A stretch of DNA of 63,675 nucleotides, counting the filler, from Rhabdomonas costata (Eukaryota), in the NCBI GenBank assembly GCA_019059605.1. It is 54 parts of 54 records of this genome, joined end to end, with 100 filler letters (N's around TTAATTAATTAA, not from the genome) between each part and the next. Parts side by side here need not be neighbours in the genome. Positions count along the whole stretch, not along the records: positions 33,084 to 34,164 come from JAHMHO010029630.1; positions 34,265 to 35,345 come from JAHMHO010029631.1; positions 35,446 to 36,526 come from JAHMHO010029632.1; 51 more parts are not named here. One strand, written 5' to 3'. Every line of letters starts with the position of its first letter. The stretch's first letter is position 1. The notes beneath the pieces were generated by a model. That model was not told the DNA's origin. It did not search any database and saw only the letters and a list, made by a program, of their open reading frames with translations. A program made the translations under genes and the position numbers. Shown piece after piece: positions 8,158 through 36,207 of the stretch.

Positions 8158-10027
8158 GTGCGTGTTAGNNNNNNNNNNNNNNNNNNNNNNNNNNNNNNNN
8201 NNNNNNNNNNNNTTAATTAATTAANNNNNNNNNNNNNNNNNNNNNNNNNNNNNNNNNNNNNNNNNNNNGGTTGTTGGGGTAGGCTTTGCTTTATTAGCTT
8301 CAGTTCAGGCAGGTATCTTGTTGGGCGGCTGGGTACTCGTCGGTATGTGTTCGAGGTCAACGAATTACTCCCCACTTCCCATTCTGCACAGTCTCGCTTC
8401 CTCGATTTGGGATGGGGTGGAATGCCTTGTTGCGTCGGCTGAGTGCACAGACGAGCGATGTTTCTCGCCATCCCCTCTTATATGCATCTCAAGTCTTTCC
8501 TTTTCCAGCCATCCATTCGCCTGTTACGTGGGTGGTGCCTTCAACATTCTCCGCAGGCGAGTGTGGATGCCTGTCTCTGTTTTGAGCAGTGCGGGTGTTG
8601 GACCGGACACAGGGTGCTCGTCGGCCGTTCACCACCAGCGGTTACGGCCGCGGGGGGACTGCTTCATGTTCCTGCGGCATGGCAGCCCACACACCCACCT
8701 CTCCGTGCAGCACGGGGTCCCTTCTGCCGTGGCGGGGCTGATGGAAGATGGCGGGGTATGGGTTGGCTCTTCCATACCGAGCAGTGAAGGAAAAGTGTTT
8801 TCGTTTGTCAGCGCATTGAGAGACAGGCCGTCTTTTACTTAGGCGGCTTCCCCCCCTCCATGAAAAAGCCGAATTGTCAGGGTACCAATTCTGCAGGGTA
8901 AAAACGCAGAAATATCACACTGAAAAAAGGTAGCTCGTTTTCTGCTTTGCTCATTGTCCTCTAGCTTTCTAACACCGTGCTTCCCGCAACCCAGCACGAC
9001 AGCCTGCACCGCCACCCCCACCCACATTAATGCCGATGTCGCGTTTTGCAATGTTGCTTTGAGATGAGACATTGCCTTTCAACCATTTTATGCTCAGCAG
9101 GCAGATGCCGTATAGGTTAGTTAGTTCGATAACCACATCTCACCCGCAACCAACCCCCTCTTGGGTTGGTACCTGACACTCTGCGTCCTTTTCACGCATC
9201 TTCCTAAGTTACCGGTATTTTGCTGCAACAGCAATAACACTGCGAATATGATTGATAATATTCGGAACCAATTAATTGGCCATTAAGTTTGAAAAGCCCA
9301 GCTTCTGTCGATTTCGATGGAGAGGGAGAAAAGACAGAGTTGCACTCCCNNNNNNNNNNNNNNNNNNNNNNNNNNNNNNNNNNNNNNNNNNNNTTAATTA
9401 ATTAANNNNNNNNNNNNNNNNNNNNNNNNNNNNNNNNNNNNNNNNNNNNGTTTTTTGGGTGCTGTCCCGCTGTTTTCTGCTTTTCGCCGATACTCCTTCA
9501 CCCGCGGAGGACCTGGGGTTGGAATTGATTGCCTCTTCTTTCTGGTCATCGATGACCTTTGTGGAGGGACCCTAGGGTAAATACCCCTCCCACCTTCCTC
9601 GCTGCTACCAAATCCCTCAGCCCCGAGAGGCGGCGGGGCTGATTATCAAGTGTACAGTGCAGTCAGTGGTGTAACCACAAGGGCTCCACAAGCGGCTGCA
9701 ATCTTCCTCGAATCTCGGATGGTCTTGACATATGGACGGAAGTCATATTACGTTGTGCGGTGTCTCAAGGGGCGCTCAGACCCCTCCCGCCATTTCGCAC
9801 TTTGCACTTTACACGAGGGAGGGAGAGAGCACAAGAGAAAGTGGAAAGAGATGACAACGTGAGAAGGGATCTATTTCTTGCGCCAGGTAATATCAGAAAT
9901 GTCATACTACCTTTTGCTACTGGATGGAATGTGAGTGATAGATGATGTGATAGATGATACGCATGAACGAGGTGCACCCACGAGGTGCAGCAGGTGGAAG
10001 CTTGCATGTGGGATGCCAGCCGGGGAC

Positions 10028-10187
10028 CTGTGACGGCATCCCACAGGATCATTGTGTTATCTCGAGAGGTGGTAGCCAGCAGCTTGCCGTCGTTGGAGAA
10101 GCAGCTACTGATGATCGTGTCCTCGTGGCCGAAAAAGGAGACGATCTCCCGCCCCGTGCAGACGTCGTGCATACCCAGCGAGCAGTC
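10028..10187 (-). CDS. WD40-repeat protein exon
   Basis: GHEDTIISSCFSNDGKLLATTSRDNTMILWD is a canonical GH...WD repeat, flanked by AG and GT. Confidence 0.85.
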
Positions 10188-10630
10188 CTGAAACCAAAGT
10201 GTGGGAACGGGGACTGGTCCCACCGACCCTGAAGCTCAGAGAATGTTCACCGGGACCAAAGATCTTTAAACTTCCACACTTCTGGATGTCCTGCGGCACC
10301 CCAACTGGGAATGTAACGCAGCAGATTCACAGAAGAGAGGAAAGAGACTGTTCCCTTCCATATCTCTTAAACATCCCATCGGAACACCATATCCCCCCCC
10401 CTTTTCACCACTTCCCTCCTCACCAGCGCTTGGGGTCCCTCTCTGTAGCCTTCGTTTGAGTTAACACAAGGGTTCTCCAAGTATACTCACAGGTCACTTC
10501 AGAAGTCACCAGACCCGGCACCCGGAAGGGNNNNNNNNNNNNNNNNNNNNNNNNNNNNNNNNNNNNNNNNNNNNTTAATTAATTAANNNNNNNNNNNNNN
10601 NNNNNNNNNNNNNNNNNNNNNNNNNNNNNN

Positions 10631-11711
10631 ACATATATAAATTCACGGCACAACCACGACGTGCTATATGTTTTTGTGTCAAGTCCTTCAATTTTATTAT
10701 TACTTCCTTTACACAACACAATACTAGTATTACCCATTGCACCGTTTTTATCAACTAAACGGAATGTCTGGCCATTTTTATATGTTCCAGACACTGAAAA
10801 GGGGAATGCTGTTAATAGGGCAAAAGATCCAACAAAAAAGACCGTATTTACATAATCTGGTATTGGAGTGTTAGCATTATTTAAATCTGTGATCCTAAAA
10901 CCTTGTGTACCATAATTTGGCAGAGAACTATAATAAACAAATTTATAAGTAGTATCTCTGAGTTGTTCATCAGGTTGAACAAATGTTGTTAGATTGTCCT
11001 TTAAAATAAATAATGCGCTGTCCATGTAGGGCATATATGGGTAAAAGTAAGTGTCACATCCAACAGTTGGTTTTTTTAGTACAACATAAAACGTGAAACC
11101 ATTAGTAAGTTTTGACATATCGGGCATAATGATGATTTGACGAAAGTCAGCAGGCCTATCATTATCACAAGCGAATAAGGTTATCGTATTTTCTGGTTGT
11201 ATTTGTATTGTTTGATAACCATTTACAAATAGATTAGTTGGGAACCAAGTTATTAACACCTGAATAAATATATTTGTTTGTGTAAGTGTTTGTGTTTGAT
11301 TAGTCCATGTATTACCATTGTACACGATCGCTTGATCTTTCAACGGATTAGATATTTGGACATCTGATAAACCATCCAATGTTGTATTTAATGTTGTGTT
11401 AGTCCAGACACCAGACATATAATGTAACACTTGATAATCAGAAGGTGCGGATATAGAGCAATCCTCCAAACCGGCCAAATTTTTAATCAATGTTATACCT
11501 GTATTAATCCATTTTGAGCCGTTATATTGTAAAAATTCACCAATAGTTGCAGAAGCTACAGAAACATCACTTAACCCCGACAAAGAAGAAATTAAATTCA
11601 AGGTGGCATTGTTCCATTTTTTCAGGGTTGAACTGTACTGTAAAATGTGAGAATCAGAAGGGTTAGCAATATTTGTGTCGGATAAGGATGATAAGGGAAC
11701 ATCAATTTCAC
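10631..11711 (-). CDS. Partial intronless AT-rich ORF, virus/phage fiber-like structural protein with four repeats of about 33 aa
   Basis: The frame is open across the whole contig, extending upstream of the listed start as EIDVPLSSLSDTNIANPSDSHILQYSSTLKKWNN. Repeats follow LxxLxDxx(I/V)xxxxxxxx(L/I)xYxxxxWxN. Composition is much more AT-rich than the host contigs. Confidence 0.6.
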
Positions 11712-33853: not shown

Positions 33854-34266
33854 GTGTGACTACTGATCATTCCGTTCAGTCTTCCACAAGCATCAGTGGA
33901 ATCATTTCATTCATTGTTCTTTTTTTTCGGGCGTCAGGTAGCCCGTTTGTCTGGTCCCGCGCGGCCTGCTTTTTTTTAACAAGAAAACATTGTGAGTCCT
34001 GTCATCAATCCTCCGCTTCTGGGGCAAGAAGTGCGCCTAAGAGTTACTAAAGAAGAGCCGTCAAGTGGTCCCACAACCGGCCGAGGGGTGAAAGGACAGA
34101 AAATTCTGTCCCCAAGTACCGGCCACGTGGCGTTTCGGGTGTCTGTACACAAGACCAACAACCCNNNNNNNNNNNNNNNNNNNNNNNNNNNNNNNNNNNN
34201 NNNNNNNNTTAATTAATTAANNNNNNNNNNNNNNNNNNNNNNNNNNNNNNNNNNNNNNNNNNNNTG

Positions 34267-34430
34267 TGTGGGTTTGACAAAAATATAAAAGATGATGGAG
34301 TAAAAGAATTATATTCATTAAAAACACTTTATTATTCCTTTGTAATAATATTATTACACTCACAATAAAGTGTTTTTAATGAATATAATTCTTTTACTCC
34401 ATCATCTTTTATATTTTTGTCAAATCCACA
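34267..34430. repeat. Terminal inverted repeat 34267-34333 / 34364-34430
   Basis: An inverted copy of LRR coding sequence sits at the contig end. Confidence 0.85.
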
Positions 34431-35229
34431 ATAGAGTGTTTGTAATGATGAAGCCAAATGTTTAATACCATCGTTTGTAAAATTATCATTATAATCACAA
34501 CGTAATTCGGTCAATGATAAATACTGAAGACAATTATCAGTAAATTTCGTATTACATCCACAAATTAATGTTTTTAAAAATGATAATGGCTTAATGCCGT
34601 TATCAGTAAAATTATTATTTTGTCCACAATTTAAATATTTCAATAATGTTAATTTTTGAATGGAATTATTTGTAAAATTTGTATTGCATCCACAGTTTAA
34701 TGTTTGTAATAATGTTAAATTTTGAAGAGATTCATTCGTAAAATTTTTATTGCATCCACAGTTTAATATCTTTAATGATGATGATAATGGCCTTAGGCCG
34801 TTATCAGTAAAATTTGTGTTTTCGTCACAAATTAATGATGTTAATGATTGAAGTTTTTGAAGAAAATTATCTGTTATCAAATTATTACAACCACAATCAA
34901 GTACTTGTATTTTGGATATTGATGGTAAAAAAATATAGTCCTAAATCTGTAATTATATTATTGCTATAAAAATTTAAATTATTGACAAAATCTAATTCAT
35001 ATTTACATTTTAACATATCATCATCTGTTGCAATTGATGTAATATGTAATTTTGTTATTGTACAATTTTTAGGTATTTTTACTTTGTAATAATTACAATT
35101 ATTAAATAATTTTACATTCACATTGTATGTACATATATTACAAAATTTTTTGTTTAAACAACGTAAATGTAAATAATTTTCTACATATTCAATTAAATAA
35201 TTTAAAATATCAATCGGTAAATTATCCAT
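34332..35229 (-). pseudogene. Giant-virus-like F-box plus leucine-rich-repeat gene with a single frameshift at 34927-34933 and a 3' end truncated by fold-back
   Basis: N-terminal F-box-like MDNLPIDILNYLIEYV...LRCLNKKF, then about eight LxxLxCxxNxxFTxxx(L/I)xxL repeats. Removing one T from the T7 run fuses the two listed ORFs. Intronless and extremely AT-rich. Confidence 0.75.
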
Positions 35230-35265
35230 TTTAAATTTTGTTTTTTAAATAATTATGTTTTATTT

Positions 35266-35273
35266 TCAATTTT
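35266..35273 (-). promoter_or_regulatory. Mimivirus-type early promoter AAAATTGA
   Basis: Exact octamer on the coding strand, 36 nt upstream of the ATG at 35229. Confidence 0.7.
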
Positions 35274-36207
35274 TTATATATGATATATATTAATTTATTT
35301 ATAAAATTTTTTTGATATCAACATATGATTATATCTCAATTCAATNNNNNNNNNNNNNNNNNNNNNNNNNNNNNNNNNNNNNNNNNNNNTTAATTAATTA
35401 ANNNNNNNNNNNNNNNNNNNNNNNNNNNNNNNNNNNNNNNNNNNNGTGGTGTGTGTTTCTTTTACGAAGGAAAGGAGAGGGAAATGAAAGGAGCAATGGG
35501 TTAGGTTTTGCTATTCATTGCTTTGAAGACCAAAAGATTTGGTTGTGTGAGGTGACCAACGCGCTCCCTCTCTCTCTCTCTTTAAATTGTAAGATAAGCT
35601 ACGAAGACGAAGAAACTTCGCAGAAAAAGTGTTTCTGTGTTTGTGTTTCTGCGTTTGTGTGTCTGGGAGAAGTCTACTTTCCTCGAATTTTCTCCCAGCA
35701 TTTCTTTTGAAAAAGTAATGGAATGCACATTCTCTCCTCTCTCCCTTCTCTCCATTCTCTGTGTGGCCGCCCATTTCTTTTCGTGAGTGCTCCTGAAGGT
35801 CCCACTCAGCAGCAGAACAGCGGGACAGTTCTATAGTATACAGTGCCACCATCCACCGCCATCCATTAGCACGTTGACGCAGCTGGTTAAACGGTGTGCG
35901 TGTATGTGTGCATATGTGATGACCGTCCCCCCTCGATTTTATCGGGGGAGTGGGGATGTCAGTGGAAAGGAGAGTTGTGTGGCTTGGAAACGTTACCTGA
36001 TGCTAATGCCCTGGCCGGATGATGCGTTTGTTTATATCTCCGCAGTACCCACACCAGTAAAGGATGGACAGAAGCCAAGCCTGCGGTGTCCTCACGCAAT
36101 GGTTGTGCACCTGACGAGTCCGCCTTCTGTTGTTCCCCCTTTTTTTTTGTTTTAGGGAATTTTGGAGCAGTGCGTGCGTGTGTGTGTGTGTGTTTCCGGA
36201 AAAATAG

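Follow-up and report, generated by a model that had tools for sequence, protein, structure and literature searches.

The DNA analysed here, a stretch of 63,675 nucleotides from the Rhabdomonas costata assembly GCA_019059605.1 (hereafter the window), raises the question of where one of its contigs comes from. The contig occupies positions 34265-35345 exactly, comprises 1,081 bp, has a guanine-plus-cytosine (GC) content of 20.6% and encodes a protein with an F-box-like N-terminus followed by leucine-rich repeats (LRRs). The original prediction, made from the sequence, took it for giant-virus DNA with an early promoter upstream of an F-box/LRR gene. Our analysis leads to a similar view: the contig is probably AT-rich DNA of a giant virus of the mimivirus order (Imitervirales), nearest to the klosneuvirus group, carrying a member of an F-box/LRR family behind an early promoter.

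The composition of the contig has to be read against the layout of the window. This is a series of 54 unlinked contigs, each of 1,074-1,097 bp and apparently sorted by size, whose adjacency has no genomic meaning; the spacer word TTAATTAATTAA with its flanking N runs occurs 53 times across the window at regular spacing. Among the remaining 53 contigs, 52 have GC contents of 45.7-58.1% and one (10631-11711) stands at 33.9%. Since these are unrelated contigs joined by spacers, the 'neighbours' than which the contig was said to be far more AT-rich are other contigs of the same assembly and not flanking DNA. The contrast in composition therefore stands as a figure, while its implied meaning as a difference from adjoining sequence does not.

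A split F-box/LRR gene and the fold-back at its end

The coding signal of the contig lies exclusively on the minus strand, where it is divided between two frames. Open reading frame (ORF) A (34897-35229, minus strand) encodes 110 aa, beginning with MDNLPIDILNYLIEY, and comprises an F-box-like N-terminus (residues ~2-35), a linker and a first LRR. The LRR part (34332-34940, minus strand) is encoded by a second frame, open from 34940 to 34335 and preceded by a stop at 34941-34943. Its 202 aa, closed by a stop codon at 34332-34334, make up about eight repeats of 22 aa with the form LxCGxNxNFTDxG[IL]xxLxx, a period of 66 nt at the DNA level, and are predicted to form an FBXL-like solenoid.

The two frames overlap and shift at a T7 homopolymer (34927-34933, minus strand; A7 on the plus strand). 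Past the residues GLYF the alignment of ORF A diverges from its relatives, and the out-of-frame tail after the T7 run reads FTINIQNTST before the stop. An intact relative, P0124 (178 aa), spans both frames of the window gene: its residues 1-95 align to 35229-34936 (frame -3) and its residues 73-175 to 34928-34605 (frame -1), the N-terminus being 35% identical to ORF A over 98 aa (E 2e-12). Longer relatives were also sought for ORF A, and none was found. Because P0124 aligns across both frames, the two belong to a single F-box/LRR gene, interrupted by a one-base frameshift in the homopolymer. A change of genetic code was considered as the source of the break and ruled out, as one homopolymer base suffices and P0124 aligns across it. 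The frameshift may be an error of sequencing or assembly, or else a real mutation that disables the gene. The original prediction had spoken of a frame-corrected protein; the break that this implies is located at the T7 run, but the prediction drew nothing from it and missed the fold-back at the 3' end of the gene, described below.

The repeat domain is the better characterised of the two parts. Pfam LRR_4 matches it with 30.3 bits, above the cut-off of 27, and its AlphaFold model is a regular strand-helix repeat with a predicted local distance difference test (pLDDT) value of 92.5 and a predicted template-modelling (pTM) score of 0.88. The best PDB match of this model is FBXL2 in the GGTase3-FBXL2-SKP1 complex (E 3.8e-10, template-modelling (TM) score 0.73), with FBXL17 (TM 0.77), D3 and Dia2 among further matches. 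With FBXL2 leading these matches, the modelled repeat domain is therefore FBXL-like.

For the N-terminus, ORF A matches the Pfam F-box at E 0.0022 with 18.3 bits, just under the 20.5-bit cut-off, and its first 60 aa alone do so at E 0.00097 (19.4 bits). The AlphaFold model of ORF A places short helices at the F-box site (6-15, 19-24 and 27-32), its mean pLDDT being only 62.6. Across the family (the window gene and ten further loci), the Pfam F-box is matched by seven of the 11 N-termini at E ≤ 0.01, with 4.7e-9 as the lowest value. A profile built from all 11 found 12 PDB sequences at E ≤ 1, all of them weak matches and the best being Cdc4 (E 0.077); nine of the 12 are named F-box proteins (Cdc4, FBXW7, FBXL2, FBXO42, FBXO4, FBXO3, FBXW12 and FBXW21) and are matched at the F-box. 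The predicted architecture of an F-box followed by tandem Cys/Asn-rich LRRs is thus found, in the form of a sub-threshold F-box-like N-terminus and 22-aa Cys/Asn repeats. The lack of introns that had also been put forward holds for the single gene of the contig and says nothing beyond that one gene.

At its 3' end the gene runs into an inverted repeat (34267-34430), whose arms (34267-34333 and 34364-34430) are 67 nt long, 99% complementary and separated by a loop of 30 nt. The right arm is the last coding LRR repeat; the left arm mirrors it and reaches the contig end. The left arm also supplies two bases of the stop codon, and the gene stops in the middle of a repeat, with the terminal residues ...LYCECNNIITKE ahead of the stop. 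Read on the plus strand, the sequence translates as CGFDKNIKDDGVKELYSLKTLY..., a mirror copy of the terminal peptide of the gene. As RNA, the inverted repeat folds with -99 kcal/mol (z -22). The fold-back is either an artefact or a near-identical paralogue placed tail to tail, and the true C-terminus is accordingly uncertain. As assembled, this copy of the gene would not yield a full-length protein because of the one-base frameshift and the fold-back at its 3' end.

A hairpin rule for the 3' ends of transcripts, with hairpins in the 3' untranslated regions (3'-UTRs) of mimivirus and Bodo saltans virus, is described in the cited part of PMC5871332. The window hairpin is far longer than the 3'-UTR type, and its arms extend into coding sequence on one side and to the end of the contig on the other. 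Given its great size relative to the reported 3'-UTR hairpins, we do not count the fold-back as evidence for this rule.

Relatives of the gene and their genomic context

A word-based protein search gave six matches, the best of which (P0001; E 7e-21, 44% identity) shares the arrangement of an F-box-like N-terminus and repeats. An exhaustive protein search extended this to 1,683 matches at E ≤ 0.001, 293 at E ≤ 1e-10 and five at E ≤ 1e-30, led by P0008 (E 1.8e-48, 40% identity). In the ESM Atlas, six of the ten listed neighbour clusters of the LRR part are dominated by Nucleocytoviricota and consist of LRR or F-box/LRR proteins; the F-box part likewise has six Nucleocytoviricota-dominated clusters among its ten listed neighbours. 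A structure search with the LRR model against BFVD, which holds viruses only and so ranks viruses among themselves, gave 155 matches at E ≤ 0.001, and 49 of the best 50 are named Nucleocytoviricota proteins. At the top stand Mimivirus LCMiAC01 (36, 31 and 34% identity), Hyperionvirus and Bodo saltans virus (31%). A Bodo saltans virus 'F-box/LRR domain-containing protein' is among the matches listed, at 29% identity, and lower among them are Edafos-, Harvfo-, Barre-, Cato-, Klosneu- and Tupanvirus together with some Pithovirus LCPAC bins. The giant-virus kinship proposed for the gene is therefore supported, in that its closest named relatives are Mimiviridae-like, mostly klosneuvirus-like, and include the F-box/LRR protein of Bodo saltans virus.

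Compared with the LRR and F-box/LRR proteins of Mimiviridae (LCMiAC01 A0A481YZ86, Hyperion-, Harvfo-, Cato- and Klosneuvirus, and Bodo saltans virus A0A2H4UU74), the modelled repeat domain adopts the same solenoid, with TM scores of 0.67-0.88 on the query and 29-36% identity across ~190 columns. An AT-rich genome, a multi-copy family and, in several members, an N-terminal F-box are common ground. Unlike these proteins, the window copy is frameshifted and truncated; it has no close orthologue (best identity 40-49%), and a lineage within Mimiviridae is not assignable from one repeat gene. With cellular FBXL proteins (FBXL2, FBXL17 and the Skp2-type receptors of SKP1-CUL1-F-box (SCF) ligases) the gene shares an F-box-like N-terminus followed by Cys-containing LRRs with the signature C..(I/F)TD.G(L/I)..L. 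It differs from them in its low identity of 17-20%, its richness in Asn and its 22-residue repeat (66-nt period), the Cys-containing repeat of FBXL proteins being longer at ~26 residues. LRR-like repeats of 22 residues are likewise found in the FNIP/IP22 proteins of Mimivirus, Cafeteria roenbergensis virus (CroV) and Dictyostelium, which giant viruses have in multiple copies and which often come with an F-box, according to the cited parts of PMC5753266 and PMC9525666. Membership of this family was rejected for the window gene, as the FGxxFN/FNIP signature is absent (the repeat is CGxNxNFTDxG) and Pfam FNIP gives no match at E ≤ 1.

Relatives with DNA context were sought through the repeat signature. 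Scans of viral, metagenome and genome contigs with peptide patterns gave no confirmed relative. A DNA pattern encoding CGxNxNFTD in AT-rich codons was run over IMG/VR, the JGI metagenomes and bacterial and archaeal genomes. In IMG/VR it gave one match, a true relative; a looser, codon-degenerate form gave four matches, three of them by chance, and a stricter version (NCGxNTNFTD) had no match in viral contigs. The true relative lies on L001, a contig of 105 kb and 24.5% GC that is classed as viral. At L001:6218-8234 it carries an overlapping tandem pair of F-box-like/LRR genes with 39-45% identity to the query, which adjoins a topoisomerase II and a methyltransferase; the first gene of the pair has AAAAATTGA at -62. 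Over a 10-kb stretch of L001, six of ten scanned ORFs are without a Pfam family.

The JGI metagenomes were the richer source, with 13 of 18 pattern matches encoding a relative (tblastn E ≤ 1e-5) and the other five not. L017 is one such chance match, with bacterial genes present and no relative encoded. The best relative, on L013, is 48.7% identical over 187 residues (E 5e-41); another, on L010:1-1778 (GC 11.6%), is 48% identical over 191 aa and has a clear F-box start, MNKLPNEILSIIFNYL. The contigs of the relatives have GC contents of 12-39%, most of them 19-27%, and those with context are intron-free and gene-dense. A Pfam scan of neighbouring genes (25 ORFs of at least 130 aa) identified an XRN exonuclease, DUF4116 and a kinase on L006; MutS domains I, III and V on L007 (19% GC); eIF2-alpha and TPR proteins on L014; a kinase on L015; a weak capping-enzyme match on L018; and an SNF2/DEAD helicase on L019.

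Among bacteria and archaea, scanned with one genome for each of 185,579 species, the peptide pattern gave 43 matches, none confirmed, and the DNA pattern gave seven matches and no relatives (best tblastn E 0.15), bearing in mind that both patterns are narrow and that absence from such scans is not proof. An endosymbiotic bacterium, which the original prediction had named as a source that would speak against a virus, is thus not where the pattern scans place relatives of the gene.

The motif upstream of the gene

Upstream of the ATG at 35229 lies a presumably intergenic region of 116 nt (35230-35345, minus strand) with a GC content of 9.5%, which extends to the contig end. It contains AAAAAATTGA (35266-35275, minus strand), which in turn contains the octamer AAAATTGA (35266-35273) and the 9-mer AAAAATTGA; 36 nt separate AAAAAATTGA from the ATG. 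In full, the motif reads AAAAAATTGAAAAT on the minus strand. According to the portion of PMC5294985 drawn on here, 45% of mimivirus genes, for the most part early genes, have AAAATTGA in the 150 nt upstream of them, as do 35% of CroV genes; the earlier equation of the octamer with the mimivirus early promoter is sound as a statement of that literature. The same paper quotes the octamer in the promoter of the DNA polymerase of iridovirus IIV-6, and hence it is not strictly unique to Mimiviridae. The window gene shares the 9-mer AAAAATTGA with Bodo saltans virus, of which it is the highly conserved early motif in the cited part of PMC5871332.

Taken alone, the octamer is weak evidence. The whole window holds four copies where 3.85 are expected, and among 200,000 shuffles of the 116-nt upstream region 3.9% contain at least one sense AAAATTGA and 2.2% contain AAAAATTGA. 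The placement of the octamer 36 nt before the ATG is thus as predicted, while its mere presence carries little weight.

The contigs of the relatives are more informative. Enrichment was assessed on 39 ORFs with at least 60 nt of upstream sequence at 12 relative-bearing loci, leaving out L019 and L020. Upstream of these ORFs we counted 14 sense copies of AAAATTGA, in ten upstream regions, and one antisense copy; the shuffle mean for the 12 loci is 1.26 and none of 5,000 shuffles reaches 14. All 14 sense copies are in fact AAAAATTGA, nine of them starting at -49 to -63 and five, which are second copies, at -80 to -122. Across 168 permutations of the same composition, high counts arose only for shifted versions of the motif. 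The copy in the window, which starts at -44, is slightly nearer to the ATG than most copies in the relatives. The octamer is thus enriched upstream of genes on the relatives' contigs (14 against 1.26).

Two of these contigs also show a pattern of their own. On L014:1-5484 and L018:1-3139 several genes are preceded by AAAAATTGAAA twice, at about -50 to -62 and again at about -96 to -122. If ORFs nested antisense within a larger one are set aside, the motif precedes four of the five on L014 and all three on L018.

Origin of the contig and a possible role for its product

A number of observations weigh against attribution of the contig to a mimivirus-like virus. The evidence base is 1,081 bp and one gene. 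The F-box match of ORF A lies below the Pfam cut-off and the N-terminal model is poor (pLDDT 62.6). In all searches the closest relatives show 40-49% identity, and this in a repeat domain whose composition inflates the scores; the ten best protein matches are singletons from raw-read/ENA and metagenome assemblies without a taxonomic label. The single motif of the window has a chance probability of 2-4%. Its enrichment elsewhere is carried by four of the 12 loci (L001, L006, L014 and L018); the two closest relatives, on L013 and L010, are without it, only four of 15 LRR genes have it upstream, and L019 and L020, recognised later, add no sense copy and one antisense copy. The recognition value of the LRR part in the Atlas is low (1296), and we therefore treat the Atlas result as a lead only. 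Topoisomerase II, XRN, MutS and eIF2-alpha, found beside the relatives, occur in eukaryotes too. One listed Atlas cluster near the LRR part is 50% Eukaryota, mainly Tubulinea, and since BFVD ranks only viruses a closer cellular relative is possible.

The last of these points lead to a cellular source, namely an AT-rich eukaryote (the sequenced organism, a contaminant or prey such as an amoebozoan) with an FBXL-like protein of its own. The combination of F-box and LRRs is originally a eukaryotic architecture, the best solved structure matching the repeats is human FBXL2, and to the half-eukaryotic cluster is added a fungal one among the listed neighbours of the F-box part. This explanation keeps a place because the genome searches covered viral, metagenome, bacterial and archaeal collections. 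Nevertheless, for each part of the gene most listed Atlas clusters, six of ten, are dominated by Nucleocytoviricota; the relatives with context lie on contigs that are dense in genes and free of introns and that have the Mimiviridae early motif at about -55, one of these being the 105-kb contig classed as viral in IMG/VR; and the window gene has the same 9-mer AAAAATTGA upstream. Together these observations render a eukaryotic origin rather improbable. A bacterium that is AT-rich and lives inside protists (Dependentiae, Chlamydiae or Legionella-like), with eukaryote-like F-box and LRR effectors, has precedents of a kind, such expansions being treated in the cited parts of PMC4209131 (Chlamydiae), PMC4378268 (Babela) and PMC6561590 (Chromulinavorax). 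Against this, two scans of the 185,579 bacterial and archaeal species with narrow patterns yielded no relative, where the same DNA pattern yielded 13 true relatives among 18 metagenome matches. A GC content of 20.6% also lies below the composition known for these symbionts. We regard a bacterial source as hardly credible, and the bacterial effector was rejected as a candidate.

A further alternative accepts the viral ancestry of the DNA and places it in the nuclear genome of the sequenced organism, as a fragment of an integrated and decaying endogenous element in which the frameshift would be a genuine pseudogenising mutation and the fold-back a genuine rearrangement. The gene is indeed broken at 34927-34933 and truncated in mid-repeat by an inverted duplication, and eroding giant-virus DNA is documented in protist genomes, for example that of Euglena gracilis, in the cited part of PMC12455990. 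The contig, however, has no host-like flank on either side and a GC content of 20.6% as a whole, a homopolymer frameshift and a terminal fold-back are also typical of sequencing or assembly artefacts, and the Euglena elements in that part of PMC12455990 are Asfuvirales and not mimivirus-like. The damage to the gene thus fits decay as well as it fits artefact, and we consider an integrated remnant unlikely, if by no means far-fetched.

Within the preferred attribution to mimivirus-like DNA, the DNA may stem from a virus, whether free or infecting, from a virus that belongs to some other organism in the sample, or from an integrated copy. A link between the DNA of the contig and the sequenced organism is something that we can only infer, and one short contig cannot establish that a virus infects or resides in that organism. 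The stronger proposition, an undescribed klosneuvirus-like giant virus that infects the sequenced eukaryote or is integrated in it, is accordingly one that we put forward as tentative and somewhat doubtful.

It is tempting to consider what an intact member of this family might do. The gene would be one of a multi-copy family whose products have an N-terminal F-box followed by 22-residue Cys/Asn-rich LRRs of FBXL type. The transcription machinery of the virus would recognise the early-promoter element AAAAATTGA upstream. In the early phase of infection the F-box could dock on the SKP1-CUL1 core of the host, with the LRR solenoid offering a host protein to be ubiquitinated. In this way the viral product would stand in for a cellular substrate receptor. 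Such hijacking of SCF ligases is suggested by the domain architecture only.

Precedent for a scheme of this kind comes from other pathogens. Poxvirus ankyrin/F-box-like proteins are reportedly the subject of a 2008 study by Sonnberg, to go by its title. PRANC proteins of this kind have their F-box-like domain at the C-terminus and repeats of the ankyrin type, unlike the window gene, which has an F-box-like N-terminus and LRRs; the comparison is therefore an analogy and not a case of whole-protein homology. What may be shared with PRANC proteins and other pathogen effectors is the proposed division of labour in the cited part of PMC10583209, whereby an F-box recruits the host SCF and the repeats select the target.

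Much of the setting is already known, namely multigene families of F-box/LRR proteins, the early motif and the occurrence of giant-virus DNA in assemblies from protists (cited parts of PMC5753266, PMC5871332 and PMC12455990, respectively). What is new is a divergent, broken member of the F-box/LRR family on 1 kb of DNA. Few protist lineages have a known giant virus: Bodo saltans virus is given as the only giant-virus isolate for Discoba in the relevant part of PMC12455990, and a giant virus is reported for Naegleria in that of PMC11043551. A genuine association would thus extend the host range known for giant viruses and, if the host were a euglenozoan or another poorly sampled protist, would constitute a new host-virus pair. 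Should our reading of the gene hold, it would also point to a family of early-expressed F-box/LRR receptors with mappable host targets, and so to a tractable candidate for early use of the host ubiquitin system by mimivirus-like viruses. For the present, the value of the finding is that of a modest lead, a flag for possible further viral contigs in the assembly.

The remainder of the window gave few recognisable features. An Rfam scan of the window returned no matches. Of the 27 longest ORFs (at least 150 aa) on the contigs of ~50% GC, one has a Pfam domain at E ≤ 1e-5, a WD40 at 9768-10235, and the other 26 are without one. The contig of 33.9% GC (10631-11711) is covered in its entirety by a minus-strand ORF of 359 aa, P0007, with repeats of the type L(S/D)GLSDVxI...YNGxxWxN. 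A Pfam search with P0007 itself found no match, and PF18454 is present in two of its five database relatives. It matches PHROG 9627 (E 1.6e-10) and the tail-fibre PHROG 9729, and from its sequence looks like a fibre-type protein of a phage or virus, an entity apparently different from the contig of 20.6% GC.

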